A DNA stretch of 62,116 nt from Candidatus Peribacteria bacterium RIFCSPHIGHO2_01_FULL_55_13 (GCA_001788925.1 MFXS01000036.1:19223-81338), one strand, 5' to 3'; shown: positions 17,823-25,932, counted from the stretch's first letter. Numbers and translations are program-made. Notes: generated by a model from the letters alone, not told the origin.

Positions 17823-17840
17823 CTCGTCCAGAGTCCCTTC

Positions 17841-18380
17841 TTACGGAGGGCTGCACGCAAGTGGAGTGGCTGATGGGTCGCCGGGGGGTATTGGGGAACC
17901 GTAGTAGCGAATGATGGGGCTTGCAAAACCCTGGAAGATAGTTTTTGGATGACAAAATTCCACATTACTCGCTCCGCGCTTATGTACGCTGAGAGGATTG
18001 CCCTTGGAATCTTTCCCTACAATAAGCGCACTATGTGTGTCATAACGCACATGCATATGAATGCCGATTGGAAATTGAAAATGATCCAATGCAGAATCAA
18101 GATCTACGTCGACGAGATTATGCGGAACCCAATCATAGAACCATTGTGGCTTTTGAAGTTGCTCTAACAGATACAGCACAAACCCGTGACAATTGTACGC
18201 ACGCATTACAAAATCTTTTTGTTCTGCATGCATGATAAAAAGCTCATACATACGCTGAGCTACTGATCCTGAAAGGTTGCCCAATCTCTTTTTCTTTTCC
18301 CGAAGTTCAAATTCTGGCTCAGTGCCGCCTTCCTGTGGAACAAGAGAATAATCAAGCAAAAGGACTTCTTCGGTAGCCAT
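17841..18380 (-). CDS. Hypothetical protein, possible Cys/His hydrolase
   Basis: 179-aa ORF in lower-GC DNA; the NCHGF ... HSALIVG spacing is reminiscent of papain-like/NlpC-P60 Cys-His pairs (weak). Confidence 0.5.
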   Translation of the reverse strand: MATEEVLLLDYSLVPQEGGTEPEFELREKKKRLGNLSGSVAQRMYELFIMHAEQKDFVMRAYNCHGFVLYLLEQLQKPQWFYDWVPHNLVDVDLDSALDHFQFPIGIHMHVRYDTHSALIVGKDSKGNPLSVHKRGASNVEFCHPKTIFQGFASPIIRYYGSPIPPGDPSATPLACSPP

Positions 18381-18467
18381 AGTACTATTATTAATATATT
18401 ATTGTTTCAGTCAAGTTCCCCAAAAGAAAAATCGAAGGTTTGCCCTCGACGATCCTTAAGAAAATTC

Positions 18468-18545
18468 TGGGGCGATCGATGGGATTTGAACCCACGACCC
18501 TCTGGACCACAACCAGATGCTCTAACCAACTGAGCTACGATCGCC
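18468..18545 (-). tRNA. tRNA-His (GTG) with encoded G-1 and CCA
   Basis: G-GCGATCG-TA-GCTC-AGTTGGTTA-GAGC-A-TCTGG-TTGTGGT-CCAGA-GGGTC-GTGGG-TTCAAAT-CCCAT-CGATCGC-C-CCA folds as a canonical cloverleaf; G-1 pairs with C73. Confidence 0.9.
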
Positions 18546-18621
18546 ATAGGAGAAGATGTTTTCCAATGAACAGAGTGCGAGCAGTGCCTTGTTAGATTAC
18601 GCCTCGCAAAGCGAGGCTGGG

Positions 18622-18641
18622 CCAACTGAGCTGCGATCGCC
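18622..18641 (-). pseudogene. Truncated duplicate of the tRNA-His 5' end (G-1 to D-loop)
   Basis: GGCGATCGCAGCTCAGTTGG then diverges. With 19 nt of upstream sequence, the 39-nt block 18622-18660 repeats 18526-18564 with 3 mismatches, offset 96 bp. Confidence 0.7.
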
Positions 18642-18796
18642 ATAGGAGAAGACATTTTCCGTAAAGAACGCCTGCCGATTGTAACGAATATTGGAACAGA
18701 GAGAAGGGCAATCGCAAAGGAAAGCATGTCTTCTTTCATGAGGATTCCCTCTCTGAAGAACGCATCTTAATATTTTTGGGTCGAACAATTTTAATA

Positions 18797-18818
18797 GCCC
18801 CCTCGCAAGCGAGGGGGC
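18797..18818 (-). terminator. Hairpin downstream of the ParB-like gene
   Basis: GCCCCCTCGCAAGCGAGGGGGC, perfect 10-bp stem; a related hairpin GCCTCGCAAAGCGAGGC is at 18601-18617. Confidence 0.5.
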
Positions 18819-18859
18819 ATTTAGGATAGACAAGTCTGTCGGTTGTGAACGTTTCTGTT

Positions 18860-19720
18860 TTACTCTTCGTCTTCGTCTTCTTTTGGCCAGGCGATTTCTG
18901 GCGCCGGCACTCGCTTTTTGTACTTCGAACGCAGTTCAGCGAATAGCATCTGGTACAATGCCATATTGTGCCCCGATTGTCGCATTCTGACGCGATTGCC
19001 TTCTGCGGTATGCAGAAGGTCCTGCATCGTGACGCCCTTCAACTTGGTTCGAAGCAACTCATCATCGATGGTCACTCCGAATGCCTTCCAGAATTCATAC
19101 ACACCCCGAAGCGCTTCACGACGTAGCGCTTCCGGTTGGTTTGGAAAAAGCTCCCCTATGTACTGGAGAACCTCCAGCACAGCGAGCTCCCCCGACTGGT
19201 TGTAAATCCGGGTCAGTTGATCTATTGCCGTAACGTACGGCCAATTTTTCAACTTACTCGTGAGTCCAACCTTGAACCCAGCCTCGCGAACCGCCTTGTC
19301 GATAGCCACCGCGTGTGGCTCCTTCGCAACGAGCGAGGCGCGGAAACAGTCCATTACCGTCACGTTCGCGCGAAACTCATTCACGAATCGGAACAGCCTT
19401 GCCTCTTCTTCTCTCGAGGCGAAGTAGTGGATGAGACAGGGAACGACTGTTTTCCCTGCGATCTTAGCGCCCTTTGTGCGCTGTTGCGCGTCGATGAGGT
19501 ACAATTTACCATCATCACGGAGGGCAACTCTTGCCACTCCATACGCTCGTGGGTTGAAATTTGCGCCGATCATCTCGGCGACCGCGTTTTCTTCACGCTG
19601 GTAAGACTTGTCAACCAACAAGTCCTCGACTGGGACCATCCCAAACCACATGTTGTCTTCTTGGCTGTCGCCGAAACCTTTCAGGTTCAGTGAGAGCCAA
19701 TCCCTATTTGGCTTTTGCAT
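18860..19720 (-). CDS. ParB/Srx-fold N-terminal domain protein of the DGQ(Q/H)R type (DUF262/DndB-like)
   Basis: VDKSYQRE ... LYLIDAQQRTKG motif pair; helical C-terminal half; acidic tail EDEDEE. Confidence 0.6.
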   Translation of the reverse strand: MQKPNRDWLSLNLKGFGDSQEDNMWFGMVPVEDLLVDKSYQREENAVAEMIGANFNPRAYGVARVALRDDGKLYLIDAQQRTKGAKIAGKTVVPCLIHYFASREEEARLFRFVNEFRANVTVMDCFRASLVAKEPHAVAIDKAVREAGFKVGLTSKLKNWPYVTAIDQLTRIYNQSGELAVLEVLQYIGELFPNQPEALRREALRGVYEFWKAFGVTIDDELLRTKLKGVTMQDLLHTAEGNRVRMRQSGHNMALYQMLFAELRSKYKKRVPAPEIAWPKEDEDEE

Positions 19721-19805
19721 AGAAATACCCTTGTTGTGAGAGACCAGATCTATCCTATTGACACTTTATGTATATAGATATCTTATAGTCAATTCATATG
19801 TCCGC

Positions 19806-21206
19806 TTATTCTTCCTCCCCCTCCTCTTCGTCCTCCACCTCGCCCCCCTCTTCGTCCTTCTCTTCGTGCTTTGAGAAGCCCACTGCTGGTATATCATTTC
19901 GATGGACTTCACCCAGAGAATCATAAGACTGCCTATCCTTTAGATGGCAAAGGGGTTGGCCCTTACGCACACGTCGCTCCAAGGCCGCCAGTTTAGCGTC
20001 ACTCCCTGGCATACCCATTGAAGCAGGATAATCTTCTGGATCTAAGGGTTTTGGTTGCCAATCGAATATCCCATGAGCAGTTGCTGTTACAATAGTATGA
20101 TGCTCAAACTCTTGAGAATACACATCTTTATCGCCCTCCAATCCACTCCCCATGGGCTGTGCCGGTATTGTTGTGCGGCCACCTTTCAATTCTGCTACTA
20201 AATCTAATAAATACGTATTATCTTCTCCATAGGGGAAGAGATCCGGAGCGATTTCATGATTACTCATTCCAGCGAAGCCTATATGCTCTGCACTTGCATA
20301 TTCATGTACTGATAGCTCCAGTGCATCCATCACTTTTTGTAATTGCGCCTGAGCATCTGGAGCATGCTCCATTCTTATGAGACGTCTATATAAAACCATA
20401 TGCCGTAAATGCTGTATTTGAAGTTCTAAGAAATCATCGTTTAGCTTTTCCTTCAATGCAGCTAATCCATTTGCTTCTTCTGTCAGTAGTACAAGGGCCT
20501 CCAGTTCATCGGCACCCAGTACACTAATGTCCTGTTCATGAAGGAGTGCCCAGATTGTGTTGTCTGAAAGTCCCAGACGATCATGAAACTGTTGTCCCAA
20601 ACTGTCTTGGTACGTGAGAAGAATGCGCACAATATCACTGATACATATTGCATCCGATTCGGATATTTCCTGTGCTTTTCTTCTTGCCCGCCCTTGTATC
20701 GTCATCTGACTGAATCGGTGATTGATCGTTTCTCTCGCACTTCTCGGAATTCTTTTTATTTCCATTTTACTAAAACCTACAGCAGATTTGTCTACCCCCT
20801 CTCTGCAATCTCCATTGGTACCAGTGTGTACATTCTTGATTGCAAGTGGAGGCGCTTCACTATCCAGCACGTTTGCATACGCTGTATGCAAACCATATTT
20901 TTGTAATTCCAAATCAAAAGCAACCTCTAATTCATCCGCTTTAAAGAACGTATTACCTGTTACTATCTCTGCGAGAAGATTTTCTCTGATCGTTTCGCAA
21001 ACCTCTCTCAAGTCCTCTACAGAAAGTGCAGATGCTTTCAATGATTTGAGTCTGCCGAATTCTCGCAGTTCCGCTAATGCCATCCCCACCAACGTGGATG
21101 CAGAAGGTTCCGTATCCGCTGCTGAAACTTTTTCGCTATCCACGGGTACAGATGTGCCTCCAGTTTCTGCCGTGCTTGTAAGGTGTTGTCGATTCATAGT
21201 TTTCAT
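19806..21206 (-). CDS. Island protein A, unknown function, paralog of 21253-23061
   Basis: Shared blocks with B: GNTFFKADELEVAFDLEL, GFSKMEIKRIP, ISDIVRILLTYQDSLGQQFHDRLGL, MVLYRRLIRMEHA, SNHEIAPDLF; acidic tail EEKDEEGGEVEDEEEGEEE. Confidence 0.65.
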   Translation of the reverse strand: MKTMNRQHLTSTAETGGTSVPVDSEKVSAADTEPSASTLVGMALAELREFGRLKSLKASALSVEDLREVCETIRENLLAEIVTGNTFFKADELEVAFDLELQKYGLHTAYANVLDSEAPPLAIKNVHTGTNGDCREGVDKSAVGFSKMEIKRIPRSARETINHRFSQMTIQGRARRKAQEISESDAICISDIVRILLTYQDSLGQQFHDRLGLSDNTIWALLHEQDISVLGADELEALVLLTEEANGLAALKEKLNDDFLELQIQHLRHMVLYRRLIRMEHAPDAQAQLQKVMDALELSVHEYASAEHIGFAGMSNHEIAPDLFPYGEDNTYLLDLVAELKGGRTTIPAQPMGSGLEGDKDVYSQEFEHHTIVTATAHGIFDWQPKPLDPEDYPASMGMPGSDAKLAALERRVRKGQPLCHLKDRQSYDSLGEVHRNDIPAVGFSKHEEKDEEGGEVEDEEEGEEE

Positions 21207-21252
21207 CTATTGTACGTCGCTAAAATCAAAAAAGAGACTCTGCCACTTGTAC

Positions 21253-23061
21253 CTAGGCACCCTTAGCTCCCCTTCGCTGGCTTTTCGGTTTCTTTGACCG
21301 TTCTTTCAAGAGTTTCAGTTCTTCTAGTATCTCCGCAAGATCCTCATCTGCACCATCATCTTCTTGCTCAAATAAGTCCGGTGCCAGATGGTGATTGCTC
21401 AATCCAAGGAATACCTTCCATTCTTTTGCTGCTAAAGCACTATCTTCCATACCTAAAACCTCCAGGATTTTTTCCAATTTCTCTTCATGGTCATGCGCAT
21501 GTTCCAGTCGTAGTAAGCGACGATACAGTACCATCCGTGGCGTACTGTCTCTCCTCATCTGCTCTGGCTCCTCGTCGCCATTTTTTGCTGACTCAATAGC
21601 TGCAAGTTCGCCTGCAAGTTTAGGCATTGCGTCTGCTTCAGCCTGCGTGAGGAGACTATAGTCATGATCCTGTATCACTTTCCATACGAGCCCGTCTGGC
21701 ATCCCCAAGCGTTCACGAAATTGGCTCCCCAGAGTGTCTTGATGTGTAAGAACAATGCGAGCGATATCACAGAGCACTGCTGCATCAGGTTCTGTAAAAC
21801 TCTGAAATACTCTCAACGCAGCCCCTTCAACAGACAATTTATGAAACAAATCGTTGAGTCGTGCCCTGTCCTCGCACGGTATTCGAGCGATCTCCGCTTT
21901 CGTAAAGCCTTTTGTGGATGCGTCTTTTTGTGTGTCTTCTTCCTCAGTCTTCTTTGTTATATTTCTTGCACTTAAGGTCGTCTCACGTGCTTTTATGCAC
22001 TTTTTATAGCGAGAACCCAACTTGTACTCCGTAATCCTGATTTCAAATGCAACGTCAAATTCGCTTGCATCAAACACCGTGTTGCCACTTGCTATCTCTG
22101 CATGTACTTCGTCTTCGATACAAGCAAACACCAGTGACCATGCATTCGCATTGTCACTCTGTGCATGCTGTAACAAAATCTTTCCTGTTGTTTTAAGCTC
22201 ATGCAGCGCTCTCGCTGCAAAATCATAGTTTTCTCTCGCATTTCTCTCAGAGCGAAAGGCCTGGTAGGGAACACACGTTGGAAGTTTTTGCCTGACCTTG
22301 TGCTCCTCTCCGGCAGGAGCGACCCGATCGACCGCTGCAAAAATGCTCATCATTCTATCCGGGTCTCGTAATGCCTTCCTCCACGAGACGCCATCGATGA
22401 TATCATTGTCACCATCGGGAGAATCCTCATACACCGCTGGCTCATACGGTCGTGAAACACGGGTAGACTTTTCTATAGCAGGATCGCTCGCTCGCCCATT
22501 TCCAGAAACTTGATGTTGCTCAGGCGCTTGCCGGGGTCGTTGTTTCGCGGCAGCAGACTGCTTCGCATGCGCACGGTTGTTTTTTGCCGGCTTGAGATCC
22601 TCCGCTGCTGCACCTTCGGGAATTCTCCCGGCAATAATCTGCATCAGATGAGTGATAGTTTCATTGACCGCTTTTTTGCAAAGATCGTGTACTCGAACAT
22701 TCATCATCTTACTTTTCTTCGCTGTCCCACCATCTCTTGCCTCAGCCAGTACTGTTCGTACTCTTTTACCAAAACGTCTCGCATCCCCGATCGTTTCAAT
22801 GCCTGGACCTGTTGTCGTTGCATCAGAAATCCCTAAAGTCTTTTCAAGATTCTGTCTTAAAAGCCCCATCTTCCCCCTGCTCGGTTGCAACTCTTTTGCA
22901 CCAGCCGAGTGTGGTGGAAATAATTCGCCTAAGACCCCCACAATAGCATCATAGTGCTGATAGAGCAGTTCAGACAGAACCTCCAAAGGAATGGGCTCTG
23001 TAAGCTTCACATTATTTCGTAAGCCAGGAAAACATTCTTCAGTTACAAATATTTTTCCCAT
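21253..23061 (-). CDS. Island protein B, unknown function, paralog of 19806-21206 with about 300 aa of N-terminal extension
   Basis: GNTVFDASEFDVAFEIRI, GFTKAEIARIP, CDIARIVLTHQDTLGSQFRERLGM, MVLYRRLLRLEHA, SNHHLAPDLF. Confidence 0.65.
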   Translation of the reverse strand: MGKIFVTEECFPGLRNNVKLTEPIPLEVLSELLYQHYDAIVGVLGELFPPHSAGAKELQPSRGKMGLLRQNLEKTLGISDATTTGPGIETIGDARRFGKRVRTVLAEARDGGTAKKSKMMNVRVHDLCKKAVNETITHLMQIIAGRIPEGAAAEDLKPAKNNRAHAKQSAAAKQRPRQAPEQHQVSGNGRASDPAIEKSTRVSRPYEPAVYEDSPDGDNDIIDGVSWRKALRDPDRMMSIFAAVDRVAPAGEEHKVRQKLPTCVPYQAFRSERNARENYDFAARALHELKTTGKILLQHAQSDNANAWSLVFACIEDEVHAEIASGNTVFDASEFDVAFEIRITEYKLGSRYKKCIKARETTLSARNITKKTEEEDTQKDASTKGFTKAEIARIPCEDRARLNDLFHKLSVEGAALRVFQSFTEPDAAVLCDIARIVLTHQDTLGSQFRERLGMPDGLVWKVIQDHDYSLLTQAEADAMPKLAGELAAIESAKNGDEEPEQMRRDSTPRMVLYRRLLRLEHAHDHEEKLEKILEVLGMEDSALAAKEWKVFLGLSNHHLAPDLFEQEDDGADEDLAEILEELKLLKERSKKPKSQRRGAKGA

Positions 23062-23136
23062 TTTTCATAATTAGACAATAAAATACAAAATAGAGTAGTG
23101 CGATAGAGTACTATCGCAGAAAGCGGTTATCAAACG

Positions 23137-23187
23137 CTTCTCTCATGAAATAGTCGCTGCAGGTAAACCTACAGCGACTGAGAGAAG
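23137..23187 (-). ncRNA. Long bulged hairpin directly abutting the 3' end of tRNA-like element 1
   Basis: CTTCTCTCA-tgaaat-AGTCGCTGCAGG-taaa-CCTACAGCGACT-GAGAGAAG (plus-strand reading); a further hairpin TGCGATAG-AGTA-CTATCGCA is at 23099-23118. Confidence 0.5.
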
Positions 23188-23258
23188 TGGACTCGACGGG
23201 AATCGGACCCGCACCCAAGACCTTGCGAGCCTTGATGCTACCGTTACACTACGAGCCC
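23188..23258 (-). ncRNA. tRNA-like element 1: full cloverleaf, GCA at the anticodon position, G3.U70, non-canonical C33 and C55, no CCA
   Basis: GGGCTCG-TA-GTGT-AACGGTA-GCAT-C-AAGGC-TCGCAAG-GTCTT-GGGT-GCGGG-TCCGATT-CCCGT-CGAGTCC-A; coordinates +/-1 nt. Confidence 0.55.
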
Positions 23259-23341
23259 ATTTCATGGCAAAATTCTACAAACAAGTCCTATTCCCTTTCA
23301 AGAAAATAGTGGCTTAAATTGTCCACAATGACGAACGGAAG

Positions 23342-23414
23342 CGGACCCGACGGGGATCAATCCCGTACACATGGGCTGATGACTCCTCGTGCTCCTTGAA
23401 AGCACTACGGTCCC
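23342..23414 (-). ncRNA. tRNA-like element 2: degenerate cloverleaf with poor anticodon stem, G3.U70, T-loop ATTGATC
   Basis: GGGACCG-TA-GTGC-TTTCAAGGA-GCAC-G-AGGAG-TCATCAG-CCCAT-GTGT-ACGGG-ATTGATC-CCCGT-CGGGTCC-G; shares 5' (GGGnnCGTAGTG) and 3' (CGGG..GAT.CCCGTCGnGTCC) blocks with element 1. Confidence 0.45.
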
Positions 23415-23458
23415 TGTTTTGAGTTCCTGCGACGAAATATTGACGCACTACATTTTTT

Positions 23459-24241
23459 ATGTACTATTATTACATGAACGACCGAATAGACAGGATCCGA
23501 GCGGCAGAAAAAGCAGATCCTCTGTACGGAAGATCTGCAGCAAGAGAGATTGTTGAAGGTGGCGAGAGGACTCGAAATGTGAGAATGAGAATAAAGAGAT
23601 TGGTGGAATCTGGAGATTACTCACTTGAAAAAATTGCTCAAAAAATACGACCAGATTTAGAAAAACTGGGACTGATTACTCTAACTGCGGAAAATGATCC
23701 TTCCACCTCTGACACTGTTGACACTCCCCCCTCTGACGCAGACGCAATAGAGGATGGTGAAGCGGAAGAAAAAGAAACGGTGGCACGTAAAGAAAAACCT
23801 GATCCTGTCATTCGTTCGATTAAAGATCTCATTCGAAGAGTCGCCGATGTGGTATGCAACCCTGAAAAAAGAAAAAAAGCTTCTACAAAACTACGCAGGG
23901 ATAGCGTACAAAAGCACGCTGATACTATTCGTAAAGCAAGGAATAAGAAATTGGAAGAAAATGGAATGTTTGTCTGGACAGAGGAACACGTTACCTATTT
24001 TAGAAAGCTGCTAAATGATGAGAAGTATTTCCGTCCAATATCGAAGAGAACAAAAACGAGGAGATACAATCACACAGCGTTATGTTGGGCTATGAATAGA
24101 AAATTCAACACTGTGCGATTTGACGAAGATGCTACACGCAATAAATTAGACGTTCTCAATACTCAAGCAAGAAAAGAGGATCGAAAGAGGCGGAGTGAGA
24201 ATAAAGAGGAGGAGATTGGGGAGGAAGAGAAAGAGAGTTAA
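23459..24241 (+). CDS. Island protein C, unknown function, paralog of 24272-25054
   Basis: C-terminal block WTEEHVTYFRKLLN...YNHTALCWAMNRKFNTVRFDEDATRNKL is shared with D; acidic/basic tail. Confidence 0.6.
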   Translation: MYYYYMNDRIDRIRAAEKADPLYGRSAAREIVEGGERTRNVRMRIKRLVESGDYSLEKIAQKIRPDLEKLGLITLTAENDPSTSDTVDTPPSDADAIEDGEAEEKETVARKEKPDPVIRSIKDLIRRVADVVCNPEKRKKASTKLRRDSVQKHADTIRKARNKKLEENGMFVWTEEHVTYFRKLLNDEKYFRPISKRTKTRRYNHTALCWAMNRKFNTVRFDEDATRNKLDVLNTQARKEDRKRRSENKEEEIGEEEKES

Positions 24242-24271
24242 TATTTTTGTAGAATTTCAGTCCGTATCTCT

Positions 24272-25054
24272 ATGAACAATACGTTGGTGGACCGAGATGA
24301 GGCTCCGGTTCGTCCCAAAATCACCGATGAAGTTCGTGAAAGATTGAGAGCGCAAACCTCCAAGTCGCAAAAAGCAATGATGATTGCTGTCTATGATTTA
24401 GCAAAACCGCCTGACAGTTTAGATTTGGAAGGAGATAGTGCTGTGAGTATCCGAGATGCAGCTGAGTTGTATGATGTAAATCATGTGACAGTGTATAAGG
24501 CTTTTTGGATTCTTTCGAAAAGTAGAGAGCTGACAGAAGCTGTATTACGTGGAGAGCTGACGGTTGGAAAAGCTGAAGCTCAGTTGAAAGCAACTTCATC
24601 AAAGCCAGGATCAGATACGGAAGGTATTCCTCTTTCAACAGAAGTTGCAGGTGTTGCGCAGCGTATTGCAGATCTCGTTATGACAAAAGAGGGAGAGTCT
24701 GTCCTCGCAGAAGTGAATCACCTTCTCCATCAAGCATTGCACAAGCTTGAACGTGGTGATCCATCGAACTCTGATTTTATGGATGACGATGAGAGGACAT
24801 TATGGAAGCCAGAGCAGGTTGAATATTTTAAAAAGTTGCTAAATCGTAGGGATGGTAGGTATTTAAGAAAACAGTTAAAAAGCACTAAAAGAAAGGCAGA
24901 TTCCATTCAGCAATATAATCACATAGCGTTATCTTGGGCTATGAATAATAAATTCAAAACTTTGCGATTTGACGAAGATGCTACACGAAGAAAATTGAAT
25001 AGAATGCGTACACAGGAAAGAGTAGAGCGATTAAGAAGCGCAGAAGTGGAATGA
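24272..25054 (+). CDS. Island protein D, ParB/KorB-type HTH-like N-region plus the C/D shared C-terminal block
   Basis: SIRDAAELYDVNHVTVYKAFWILSKSRELTEAVLRGELTVGKAEAQL resembles the ParB HTH segment; WKPEQVEYFKKLLN...YNHIALSWAMNNKFKTLRFDEDATRRKL. Confidence 0.6.
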   Translation: MNNTLVDRDEAPVRPKITDEVRERLRAQTSKSQKAMMIAVYDLAKPPDSLDLEGDSAVSIRDAAELYDVNHVTVYKAFWILSKSRELTEAVLRGELTVGKAEAQLKATSSKPGSDTEGIPLSTEVAGVAQRIADLVMTKEGESVLAEVNHLLHQALHKLERGDPSNSDFMDDDERTLWKPEQVEYFKKLLNRRDGRYLRKQLKSTKRKADSIQQYNHIALSWAMNNKFKTLRFDEDATRRKLNRMRTQERVERLRSAEVE

Positions 25055-25071
25055 TGGTTAGATGCGTCTCT

Positions 25072-25788
25072 TTATCGTGATTTCCTCCGATGGTGATACA
25101 CCTCCCCTAGGTGCCCCCGTGTATTCCATCCGATCTTTCGCATGTTCGTCAGCGGATCGTCCGCATGGGAGCGCTCTGTGCTGCGATTTTTTCTGCTGCG
25201 CATGTTTGCTGTCTTCCTGGAAGGATTCTCTGCGGAAGCCGATGAAGATTGCGCGTCGCGCTGCTCTTCGTATGTTCCTACTCGCTCGGCTCGCTCTTTG
25301 CTTTTGCGAACCTCTCTCACGCGCTCCGACACTCTCGTCTTGAGCCTGCCTCCTGTTCCCTTCACGGTTTTTCGGATCGTGATGACCGCTTCCTTCGCCC
25401 GTTCGCGGACCGCCCGCGACGGTCGTGAATTCCAGGCACTCGAGAATGCTTCGCGGATGTTCCGGAATGCTTTTTGGAGTCTTCGTTCCTCCCCCTCCTT
25501 CCCTTCCTGCCTCTCATCCTTTTCCGCACGCTCACGGGTCAGCAGCCACTTGAGGCCGAGATACGCACCGTAGGCCAGGAAGAGCACAACGATGATGCCG
25601 AGTAATATCGGCAGAAAAAGCACAACGCCGATGATGAGAAGAATGATGACCGGGATCATCAGAAGCGCCCCAAGCAGCGCCGTATTCATCTCACCTTTTC
25701 CGTCCTCTCCCCCGGGATCCGTAAAGAGAATCCACACCGCAAAAATGCCTCCGGCGATGAGTGCAGCAGTGGTGAGGATTTGCTCCAT
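25072..25788 (-). CDS. Hypothetical membrane protein with charged C-terminal tail
   Basis: Three predicted TM helices in the first 90 aa, then Arg/Lys/Glu-rich sequence; GC back to the flank level. Confidence 0.55.
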   Translation of the reverse strand: MEQILTTAALIAGGIFAVWILFTDPGGEDGKGEMNTALLGALLMIPVIILLIIGVVLFLPILLGIIVVLFLAYGAYLGLKWLLTRERAEKDERQEGKEGEERRLQKAFRNIREAFSSAWNSRPSRAVRERAKEAVITIRKTVKGTGGRLKTRVSERVREVRKSKERAERVGTYEEQRDAQSSSASAENPSRKTANMRSRKNRSTERSHADDPLTNMRKIGWNTRGHLGEVYHHRRKSR

Positions 25789-25857
25789 AATGGCTTATTA
25801 TACCTTATAAATGGCTTTTTCTCTACCTGTGAGAGTATTGCGTTTATAAGAAATCCC

Positions 25858-25908
25858 AAGGGCGCAAGGGCCAAGGGCCAACATCATGTGCCCTTGGCCC
25901 TTGGCCCT
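25858..25908. repeat. Heptad/octad-word hairpin family 5 (AAGGGCC/AAGGGCGC words)
   Basis: AAGGGCGCAAGGGCCAAGGGCCA-acatcatgt-GCCCTTGGCCCTTGGCCCTT; divergent spacer immediately upstream of hisS. Confidence 0.8.
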
Positions 25909-25932
25909 TTCACTGGTAGGATTTTTTCTTGT

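Follow-up and report, generated by a model that had tools for sequence, protein, structure and literature searches.

Candidatus Peribacteria bacterium RIFCSPHIGHO2_01_FULL_55_13 carries an AT-rich island of about 7 kb at positions 17830–25060 of a 62,116-nt stretch of its genome (GCA_001788925.1 MFXS01000036.1:19223-81338), which in its full length is called the window in the following. Which kind of genetic element is this island, and what could its genes do? The original prediction, made from the sequence, had regarded the island as a self-contained, horizontally acquired module, possibly defence-related, partition-like or selfish. We found that its conserved core, tRNA(GCA) followed by the genes for two orphan proteins B and A and for a ParB-like protein of the DUF6551 family, plus a gene C, recurs as a unit in different neighbourhoods of related genomes. 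The reading that we prefer, with a probability of about 0.4, is that this cassette is a ParB-type DNA maintenance or regulation module which derives from a mobile element, has long been resident and carries a hybrid tRNA as cargo.

The ParB-like protein belongs to the DUF6551 family

The gene at 18860–19720 (minus strand) encodes a protein of 286 aa, the only island protein with a match in any library. Residues 39–260 score 67.1 bits with the Pfam family DUF6551 (PF20188; cut-off 26.8, E 2.2e-18), and the protein also matches PHROG 1033 "ParB-like partition protein" (E 4e-10). Together with the motifs DKSYQRE (YQRE) and LIDAQQRT (IDAQQR), which align with those of phage homologs and of homologs from the candidate phyla radiation (CPR), these matches confirm the ParB/Srx-fold protein of the DGQQR type that had been proposed for this locus. 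Five close DUF6551 relatives were obtained in a protein search, and the DUF6551 match lies above the cut-off in all cassette copies. To our knowledge DUF6551 has no known role, and ParB-fold NTPases outside partition form a fast-growing but functionally blank field.

A tblastn search found relatives of the ParB-like protein with 22–31% identity in phages (38 records, mainly from temperate phages of Staphylococcus and Mycobacterium) and in 7 plasmids. In Staphylococcus phage 85 and in the Mycobacterium prophage phiGD20-1 the DUF6551 gene is the second of a gene pair directly after a cro-like gene and is preceded by the gene for a ParB_N protein of about 300 aa. Gordonia phage Kiko has it as the second gene behind the immunity repressor. 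The phage 85 homolog also matches GmrSD_N weakly (E 2e-4). Binding of ATP or CTP in vitro is reported for phage DUF6551 fusions from DRaCALA assays (bioRxiv 10.1101/2025.10.10.680097). In the same survey of the ParB-CTPase fold, single-domain members are independent proteins (sulfiredoxin), and others are fused to methyltransferase or predicted RNA-methyltransferase domains.

An orphan protein family precedes DUF6551

The two genes in front of the DUF6551 gene encode protein A (19806–21206, minus strand, 466 aa) and protein B (21253–23061, minus strand, 602 aa), the short and the long paralog of one family (35% identity over 307 aa, E 4e-53). They had been described as paralogs holding no motif that can be named, and this still stands: A, B, C, D and p179, a further small protein of the island, have no significant match in Pfam, PHROGs, NCBIfam, PADLOC or PDB sequences. 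When 1.84 billion proteins were scanned in full with HMMER, 11 representatives of the A/B family were returned at E ≤ 1e-3, and in a word-indexed search of 5.8 billion proteins just two other clusters were found for B. Protein A consists of the shared core, a C-terminal domain of its own and an acidic tail. Protein B has an N-terminal "CFP...NRG...GDxRR" domain and a disordered linker in front of the shared all-alpha core. The AlphaFold2 (AF2) model of B, made from an 11-sequence alignment (predicted local distance difference test, pLDDT, 70.6; predicted template modelling score, pTM, 0.38), is all-alpha apart from three short strands and contains two linkers that are disordered. A Foldseek search of PDB and BFVD with this model gave nothing below E 0.4 and B has no PDB sequence match, which leaves the A/B family without a Pfam, PDB or viral fold match.

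We considered whether the N-terminal domain of B could be a divergent ParB_N domain, as QPSR...L..L...G....IGDARR aligns by eye with ParB boxes I and II. This was rejected: hhalign once aligned the motifs, but the probability was 0.07–0.2% against phage ParB_N and DUF6551, and Foldseek returned no ParB structure. A ParB_N match in Pfam is absent in all 11 members of the family. Helix–turn–helix (HTH) and sigma matches are likewise absent in the 11 members, even at E ≤ 10.

Some distant members of the family have features of their own. P0010 (L021, 10001–13051) contains an inserted class-I methyltransferase-like domain at residues 351–464 (Methyltransf_23, E 5e-5, sub-threshold with 23.5 bits where the cut-off is 27). 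At L037 (171–2394) the gene for P0015 and the start of a gene with sigma-70 region 1.2 (E 3e-13) overlap by 23 nt, which may point to a link of the shared core domain with transcription. Methyltransf_23 is one of the domains for which fusion to the ParB-CTPase fold is commoner in phages than in bacteria, and Sigma70 fusions to this fold occur in bacteria (bioRxiv 10.1101/2025.10.10.680097); the insert of P0010 and the neighbour of P0015 are weak echoes of these fusion partners. Downstream of P0014 an open reading frame (ORF; L038, 2229–3314) contains HEGH and KMSHY motifs that resemble the HIGH/KMSKS motifs of class I aminoacyl-tRNA synthetases, and it has no Pfam match at E ≤ 0.01.

Protein C (23459–24241, plus strand, 260 aa) has P0005 and P0006, two other C/D clusters, as its only homologs. 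A helical N-terminus is followed by a disordered acidic linker, a conserved C-terminal domain of 80 aa with the consensus W..E.V.YF..LLN...YNH.AL.WAMN.KF.T.RFDEDATR.KL and an acidic tail. The AF2 model has a pLDDT of 63 overall and of about 80–85 in the C-terminal helix–hairpin–helix–helix domain. Its best Foldseek matches, a DnaB fragment and a TEA domain, have E > 2, and C has no PDB sequence match; as with B, the model gave no fold match. A C-type gene accompanies the cassette in three lineages, and an HMM search found no relatives of C/D at the distant cassette loci.

Protein D (24272–25054, plus strand, 260 aa) is a tandem paralog of C (38% identity over 143 aa, E 6e-22). The likeness is confined to the C-terminal 80–140 aa, D having a different N-terminus and sharing only the C-terminal domain, and at the nucleotide level there is a repeat of 84 nt with 88% identity (24064–24147 and 24913–24996). 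C and D had been taken for a divergent pair of paralogs; paralogs they are, but they stand in tandem on the plus strand and are divergent only from the B-A-ParB unit. For the ParB/KorB-like HTH ascribed to D the N-terminus gave weak, sub-threshold Pfam matches (HTH_psq, E 0.07; HTH_32). D has no counterpart in L009 and L012. The acidic tails that had been noted for several proteins are found at the C-termini of ParB, A and C.

The cassette recurs in different neighbourhoods

The nearest species-level genome is a metagenome-assembled genome of the Patescibacteria group from the Hainich aquifer, and the other cassette copies come from Rifle-type groundwater metagenomes. One metagenome scan for sites without the cassette, made with the RimK-like protein encoded left of the island, returned just relatives of 46–52% identity in a different synteny, and no empty site was obtained. 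In the sister species (L009, L010, L011, and L020) the flanks from RimK to hisS and the gene order are as in the window, with a single C and without D and p179. Its ParB is cut to 180 aa, the C-terminal half being replaced by an unrelated ORF of 258 aa. In a third lineage (L007, L008, L012–L019) A/B have about 78% nucleotide identity and the neighbourhood is wholly different: tRNA-Glu, S30AE and a seven-transmembrane (7TM) protein are found on one side, and STAS, HTH-SocA/Panacea, PemK and nitroreductase on the other. In L012 of this lineage ParB is largely deleted.

More distant members, about 24–31% identical to B, were found at four loci. At L021 P0010 is followed by DUF6551 between genes for a penicillin-binding protein and GlmS; L022 contains tRNA(GCA), P0009 and DUF6551; at L023 P0011 is followed by DUF6551 near tmRNA, with PspC/TspO flank genes. 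At L024 P0013 and a second paralog precede DUF6551 on a 1.25-Mb contig among housekeeping genes (SecDF/TPR/PfkB), and thus paired A/B-type paralogs recur at a distant locus. Taken together, one or more A/B-type genes followed by DUF6551 are found in seven out of nine contexts (the window, L009, L008/L018, L021, L022, L023, and L024). The cassette occurs in seven different neighbourhoods and in one cyclic permutation. A tRNA or tmRNA gene lies within 1 kb in four of the six distinct lineage contexts and 5 kb away in L024; a "tRNA-Thr" called by ARAGORN in L021 had no Rfam confirmation and was discarded.

Read with B forward, the order in the window is D (reverse), C (reverse), tRNA(GCA), B, A, and ParB (all forward). 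In the third lineage (L007/L012/L018) it is B, A, and ParB (forward), C (reverse), and tRNA(GCA) (forward). The homology breaks at window position 23142 / 23148, that is, after the terminator hairpin of the tRNA and before the conserved TTGATAACC element, and further breaks lie at 18778 and 24177. The homology to L007/L012 stops at 23142, which is the left edge of a portable B-A-ParB block. At the other end of the block a GC-rich hairpin, an inverted repeat at 18792–18823 (minus strand), ends the B-A-ParB operon; it is also kept in the second-context copy, where the homology to L018 extends through the hairpin to 18778. The element (G)AGAGAAnnGnTTGATAACCnCTTTCTG upstream of B (23117–23144, minus strand) is common to the window, L009 and L012, despite the unrelated upstream DNA in L012. 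It is likely to contain the –35 promoter part and the operator of B. We considered two ways in which the permuted order of the five parts could have arisen. A circle of 5–6 kb opened at two points would give this order together with the unrelated flanks. A tandem duplication followed by loss, plus a relocation, could equally yield it.

Two observations were made next to the copies of the third lineage. Beside the second-context cassette the 3′ end of tRNA-Glu(CTC), ccccgtagcggtaccattc (L007, 2483–2503), is repeated about 150 nt downstream (2631–2651). The repeat looks like an att-like (attachment-site-like) scar or a short tandem duplication and resembles the partial duplicates of tRNA-His and tRNA(GCA) in the window. 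At L012 1109–2291 (also in L013–L017) genes for a PemK toxin and an HTH-SocA/Panacea antitoxin-like protein lie about 1–2.5 kb from the C-type gene. A STAS/DUF4325-like gene separates them from the cassette, and the surroundings are accessory or defence-island-like.

tRNA(GCA) combines alanine and cysteine features

The tRNA upstream of B (23187–23258, minus strand) was called by ARAGORN and matches the Rfam model with 46.9 bits against a cut-off of 29. A terminator hairpin follows on its 3′ side (23152–23179, minus strand), and a promoter-like site is situated at 23301–23272 (minus strand). Two degenerate tRNA-like RNAs had been predicted in this spacer. This description applies to the second, which is a decayed copy; the first is tRNA(GCA), a structured and functional-looking tRNA, the mixed alanine/cysteine identity of which had been missed.

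tRNA(GCA) is found in the window, L009, L012, and the distant L022, and in each of them it has G3·U70, A73 and C33 (loop U-C-GCA-R-R) and no encoded CCA. Pairing in the cloverleaf is 100% in each of the four lineages, and compensatory change is seen in seven pairs, three of which lie in the acceptor stem beside the invariant G3·U70; in 500 shuffles these values of pairing and compensation were never attained. Full pairing and covariation around a fixed wobble pair indicate that tRNA(GCA) is under structural selection and that G3·U70 is actively kept. G2-C71 is invariant as well, G4-C69 is found in L022 only, and position 20 is U. The six other tRNAs of the fetched loci (His, Glu, Ala, Trp, Asp, and the tRNA-Cys of L024) all have U33 and an encoded CCA, and the tRNA-Cys of L024 is canonical with U73.

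Identity of bacterial tRNA-Cys is conferred by U73, G2-C71, C3-G70 and the anticodon GCA, and that of tRNA-Ala by A73, G2-C71, G3·U70 and G4-C69, with G4-C69 and G20 as minor elements (PMC9976931). G3:U70 is sufficient for alanyl-tRNA synthetase (AlaRS), which ignores the anticodon (PMC11415595). The canonical cysteine set (U73, C3-G70) is not present in tRNA(GCA), which has A73 and G3·U70 in four of four lineages. The alanine set (G3·U70, A73, G2-C71) is present and charging by AlaRS is predicted from it. tRNA(GCA) would accordingly join an alanine acceptor identity to a cysteine anticodon, with alanine as the amino acid that it may carry. In the window, Cys codons are found at the expected zinc-ligand positions of RibD. 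The genetic code is therefore standard, and a Cys-charged tRNA must exist somewhere in the genome. In a limited literature search we found no report of a bacterial structured tRNA with a full alanine acceptor identity, a Cys anticodon and C33.

tRNA(GCA) is linked to B-type genes in four lineages; L021, L023, and L024 carry the protein cassette without it. The decayed tandem copy of the tRNA(GCA) unit in the window (23304–23459, minus strand; pseudo-tRNA body at about 23325–23414) has about 70% identity to the intact unit at a repeat spacing of 154–156 nt. It gave no match to the tRNA model at E ≤ 10 and a fold z-score of –0.19, and it is lineage-specific, as 23312–23419 has no counterpart in L009 and L012.

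Composition and selection do not indicate a recent transfer

In seven 1-kb segments at 18–25 kb the GC content is 0.41–0.52 (mean 0.455), against 0.560 ± 0.033 in the remaining 53 segments (Mann–Whitney p = 2e-5). Measured against the remainder of the window, the strand-symmetric tetranucleotide distance is 0.375–0.452 in 3-kb segments at 18–26 kb and at most 0.278 elsewhere, which makes the island the sole outlier in 62 kb. Both edges are sharp, the left one at the stop codon of the RimK-like gene (17822) and the right one at that of D (25054). The AT-rich island and its edges are thus as originally described and the profile is not flat, but the flanks have about 56% GC, against 0.456 in the island, and not the 65% given for them. 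An assembly chimera was rejected, as the island gene set is present on four further contigs from other samples.

The GC content at third codon positions (GC3) is 0.40 in p179, 0.37 in A, 0.42 in B, 0.35 in C and 0.33 in D; it is 0.62 in ParB and 0.63–0.75 in host genes. At the other loci it is 0.39–0.57 in B-type genes, 0.56–0.67 in DUF6551 and 0.60–0.76 in host genes. The contrast between the low GC3 of the orphan genes and the host-like ParB was seen at all eight loci, the very distant ones included. The AT-richness is gene-specific and confined to fast-evolving genes, and it is no clean scar of a transfer.

In comparison with the sister species (L009) the ratio of nonsynonymous to synonymous divergence (dN/dS) is 0.03–0.22 in host genes, with a synonymous divergence (dS) of 0.40–1.2. 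For A, B and C the dN/dS is 0.42, 0.39 and 0.53 (C 0.36–0.53 overall) and the dS is 0.37–0.50, and these genes are about equidistant among the three close lineages. ParB has a dN/dS of 0.05 and a dS of about 1.8 against L009 and is under strong purifying selection (dN/dS 0.05–0.06). Judged from these values, A, B and C are real genes that appear weakly constrained or driven by conflict, and ParB appears tightly constrained; all of them are kept as ORFs. The selfish character proposed for the island is borne out in part, in that A, B and C evolve fast (dN/dS 0.3–0.5) like conflict-related or selfish genes.

The gene-specific GC split, together with the codivergence of the island with its flanks, weakens the step from low GC to horizontal acquisition. 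Mobility must consequently rest on the genomic context. Of the self-contained acquired module proposed originally, the discrete and recurring unit with no recognisable housekeeping fold remains; AT-richness as a scar of transfer and a recent transfer do not. The locus is also a caution that an AT-rich "island" can arise by gene-specific relaxed selection and not by recent transfer.

The dS of ParB (window 18860–19720 against L009 5762–6304 and L018 2006–2860) is 1.6–1.8, three to four times that of the adjacent A/B genes (0.44–0.61). Composition may have affected this estimate, or the gene may have a history of its own. In L005 (9053–10035 and 17929–18069) and L006, 1–2-base indels were found relative to the 99.8%-identical L009. 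Pseudogenisation was rejected: 26 of the 32 differences from L009 are indels, mostly in homopolymers, clustered, and at about 5× coverage. The resulting frameshifts in B, A, C, and gyrB are probably assembly errors and not pseudogenes.

Origin and possible function of the cassette

In the reading that we prefer, the cassette would go back to a temperate phage or a plasmid-like element, namely to its early or maintenance region, and would now be a chromosomal resident, possibly still mobile. A and B may be DNA-binding proteins, with the conserved operator in front of B as their probable site, and may assist the DUF6551 protein as a partner or loader. For A/B as well as for C/D it is the context that suggests DNA binding. 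As in other ParB-fold proteins, NTP binding might switch the DNA-bound state of the DUF6551 protein, be it a clamp, a silencer or a nickase, although such gating is assumed from the family. The complex of A/B and DUF6551 would maintain or regulate the DNA of the element, with C and D as regulators of the complex. tRNA(GCA) with its crippled C33 anticodon loop would be cargo of the element, and Ala-tRNA(GCA) could cause low-level Cys-to-Ala miscoding or have a non-ribosomal role. The derivation from a mobile element draws on the linkage of A/B with DUF6551, the differing flanks, the permutation, the nearby tRNA/tmRNA genes, the phage parallel, the selection pattern, the local plasticity and the tRNA; the mobility itself is suggested by gene order and context. 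The evidence separates the origin of the cassette better than its function.

A number of observations weigh against this reading. In accordance with the original prediction, Pfam, PHROGs, NCBIfam and PADLOC gave no match to an integrase, replicase or capsid in the island. Beyond this, no integrase, transposase, relaxase or replication protein was found in any cassette copy, the sole transposase near any copy being an IS1595 element 8 kb away in L021. Att-like repeats are restricted to short AT-rich similarities at the ends of L012 and to the short-range partial tRNA duplications. No free circular form was seen, and no relatives of A/B, ParB or the tRNA pattern were found in IMG/VR viral contigs. 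The A/B proteins have no Pfam match even at E ≤ 10 across the 11 members and no detectable DNA-binding domain, and the idea that their core is a repeated HTH was rejected, as a self profile–profile comparison found no internal repeat. With hhalign probabilities of 0.07–0.2% they are not homologous to the phage ParB_N partners. The two most distant members share part of the core only and are not situated beside DUF6551: P0015 precedes the sigma-70 gene and P0014 precedes an unknown protein. The island dS is in step with that of the flanks, which argues against a recent transfer, and the host-like GC3 of the ParB gene in all lineages suggests a long residence. Two readings remain for the tRNA: tRNA(GCA) may be an extra alanine-accepting tRNA carried by the cassette, as assumed above, or it could be the only tRNA-Cys of the clade with a co-evolved cysteinyl-tRNA synthetase.

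Membership in a partition system, in line with the partition-like role considered originally, could not be made out, as neither a ParA gene nor parS-like repeats were found in the island. No ATPase domain was found in any island ORF or in the cassette neighbours at the other loci. The ParB-like protein gave no match to ParB_N, HTH_ParB or ParB_C at E ≤ 0.1 and no match to an NCBIfam ParB model. Parts of the island that could serve as parS-like or iteron repeats are missing too, there being just single hairpins and one operator-like palindrome upstream of B, which also counts against a maintenance module.

The cassette could instead be a vertically inherited, clade-specific host operon in which B/A and DUF6551 serve the chromosome as a regulator, say of transcription or of the nucleoid. 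The flanks would then differ by old rearrangement, and weak selection with AT-biased mutation in the fast-evolving genes would account for the AT-richness. We regard this as the main rival, somewhat less likely than the mobile-derived module. It agrees with the dS of A, B and C, which lies within the range of the flanks against L009, with a low GC3 that is gene-specific over deep divergence next to a host-like ParB, and with the chromosomal location of all copies, one of them among housekeeping genes on the 1.25-Mb contig. The failure to find mobility genes, the distant A/B member directly upstream of a sigma-70 gene and the adjacency of tRNA(GCA) and B kept in the distant L022 point in the same direction. 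It is difficult to reconcile with a permutation and wholly different flanks at about 22% nucleotide divergence, with the toxin–antitoxin genes adjoining the cassette in L012 and with the tRNA/tmRNA genes that flank most contexts. The truncation of ParB in the L009 species and its large deletion in L012, the extreme rarity of the A/B family and the occurrence of DUF6551 relatives mainly in temperate phages and plasmids likewise speak against it. Taking the mobile origin further, one may think of a minimal selfish element without a known recombinase that uses A/B and DUF6551 as its maintenance or mobility machinery and has an alanine-accepting tRNA(GCA), its anticodon loop throttled by C33, deliberately miscoding Cys to Ala or feeding a non-ribosomal reaction for the good of the element; this we hold to be decidedly unlikely.

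Anti-phage defence or sensing of DNA modification, with the DGQQR ParB-fold NTPase as sensor and A/B as effectors, appears unlikely. In its favour are the (I/V)D(G/A)QQR motif, the weak resemblance of the phage 85 homolog to GmrSD_N, the rapid evolution of A, B and C, a variable locus whose cargo differs between lineages and which has toxin–antitoxin neighbours, and the methyltransferase-like insert of P0010, albeit below the cut-off. The searches, however, did not place the cassette in any defence family as had been proposed: PADLOC-DB 2.0 gave no significant match for the seven island proteins (best E 0.097 and 0.012, both to unrelated models), and the DndB/DGQHR model (TIGR03187) reached 13.3 bits against a cut-off of 58.85, with no dnd genes nearby. 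There is no DUF262 or DUF1524/HNH match in the window protein, no nuclease domain in A, B, C or D and no helicase domain in the cassette, and the phage DUF6551 gene sits in the phage's own early operon. Finally, the module could be centred on the tRNA, with proteins that use, modify or regulate tRNA(GCA) for Cys-to-Ala recoding or for a non-ribosomal use of Ala-tRNA. The linkage of tRNA(GCA) to B-type genes in four lineages, the retention of G3·U70, A73 and C33 while the stems covary and the difference from every other tRNA seen in these genomes agree with this, as do the insert of P0010 and a ParB/Srx fold that according to the survey preprint is not restricted to DNA partition. Since there are cassettes without tRNA(GCA) at L021, L023, and L024, since A/B resemble no known tRNA-binding or aminoacyl-transfer fold and since the linkage may reflect a former site of integration or synteny passed down by descent, we consider it highly unlikely.

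Other features of the island and its surroundings

The island is made up of parts of different kinds, with tRNA-His as an ordinary tRNA of the host and p179, D and the pseudo-tRNA as lineage-specific elements. p179, an orphan ORF of 179 aa at 17841–18380 (minus strand), fills the slot between RimK and tRNA-His. It has no match in Pfam, PHROG, PADLOC, NCBIfam or PDB and no homolog at the related loci except on the identical contig L001. The pattern ...YNCHGFVLYLL... / ...THSALIVGKD...SVHKRG recalls NlpC/P60- or papain-like Cys/His proteins, a likeness that no library match backs.

The canonical tRNA-His(GTG) of the original prediction was found by ARAGORN and Rfam (69.5 bits) at 18468–18544 (minus strand) and has U33, an encoded CCA and G-1. 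It is 100% identical to that of L009 over 80 nt and lies on the opposite strand relative to RimK, being inverted with respect to the sister species. The first 19 nt of this tRNA and 20 nt upstream of it are repeated at 18622–18660 (minus strand; 92% identity, 96-nt period). This repeat of 39 nt is one of four tandem duplications within the island and extends the theme of local duplication that had been recognised in A/B, C/D and the tRNA(GCA) copy.

To the right of the island, between D and hisS, a membrane protein of 238 aa is encoded at 25072–25788, with 2–3 transmembrane helices and a long basic low-complexity tail. It has a host-like GC3 of 0.63, is kept in the sister species but evolves rapidly, with 68% amino acid identity and a dN/dS of 0.22, and belongs to the host side of the boundary. 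The TTG-initiated hisS ORF from 25780 overlaps this gene and is probably too long. A G+C-rich imperfect palindrome at 25848–25927 (CCAAGGG ×3.6, 34-nt arms, 79% complementary) adjoins the upstream side of the likely true hisS start (MAEPQF..., about 25930) and may be a regulatory or terminator hairpin. Upstream of the island, at 11.3–14.3 kb, the window has homology with L005 18029–20536, where the sister species has a gene similar to type IV secretion system pilin/TrbC and one for a PKD-domain protein; the GC skew in this region is strongly negative (–0.16 to –0.29).

Comparison with known systems

In this locus the ParB-fold family is known, though uncharacterised, and the A/B partner family without a recognisable fold is new. 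As far as our limited literature searches went, nothing has been described that matches the pairing kept between A/B and DUF6551, the permutation or, above all, the tRNA that joins an alanine identity to a cysteine anticodon. The locus gives DUF6551 an obligate-looking partner family in the CPR and, in temperate phages, a parallel gene pair beside the immunity switch, from which a testable two-component hypothesis follows. The extreme rarity of A/B shows how lineage-private accessory genes of the CPR can be. Of most consequence, perhaps, is the linked tRNA, which would amount to a natural device for miscoding Cys as Ala within a gene cassette, provided that AlaRS charges it and the ribosome uses it.

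Natural tRNAs of mismatched identity include the Streptomyces tRNA-ProX. Reviewed cases are anticodon variants of tRNA-Ala, variants of tRNA-Cys/Thr/Pro that bear G3:U70, and the yeast tRNA-Ser(CAG) with G33; in such mistranslating tRNAs U33 is often exchanged for another nucleotide, a change presumed to restrict decoding (PMC11415595). tRNA(GCA) resembles them in its alanine acceptor set on a cysteine anticodon and in its non-U33 loop. It differs in being bacterial (CPR), in having C33 rather than the reported G33/A33, in lacking an encoded CCA though the host tRNAs have it, and in being conserved with covariation over deep lineages and linked to a protein cassette.

With islands associated with tRNA/tmRNA genes the cassette shares the deviant composition, the location at tRNA genes, the variable cargo, the differing neighbourhoods and the partial tRNA duplications (5′ part of tRNA-His in the window, 3′ part of tRNA-Glu in L007). 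Unlike them, it has no integrase or recombinase in the contexts examined and no clear att direct repeats bounding the unit, and the duplicated tRNA pieces are short-range tandem repeats (96–155 nt) that do not span the island. ParABS, KorB and Noc have the ParB/Srx N-terminal fold family in common with the cassette, and an NTP-gated DNA-bound state may apply by analogy; the cassette lacks their ParA, its ParB has no recognised HTH (PF17762) or C-terminal dimerisation domain, no parS-like repeats were found, and box II reads DAQQR rather than GERRxR. A DGQ(H/Q)R-type motif pair and mobile or variable loci are shared with the DGQHR/DndB proteins and DUF262 NTPases; the cassette differs in having no dnd genes, no DUF1524/HNH nuclease domain and no significant PADLOC match.

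A close parallel is offered by the phage DUF6551 proteins (phage 85 ORF016, phiGD20-1 gp45). The phage partner is a ParB_N protein (PF02195) of about 300 aa, whereas the partners here are orphans of 466–1016 aa with no detectable homology to it, and the cassette sits in a CPR chromosome without other phage genes and with a protein identity of 22–31%. Alike are the family match, the size of 255–290 aa, the YQR ... DGQ(Q/H)R motifs and the position of DUF6551 as last or second gene of a short codirectional unit behind a larger partner gene, with small regulator-like genes adjoining in divergent or convergent orientation. The CPR cassette in this way follows the layout seen in the phages: small regulator-like genes, a partner gene and then DUF6551.

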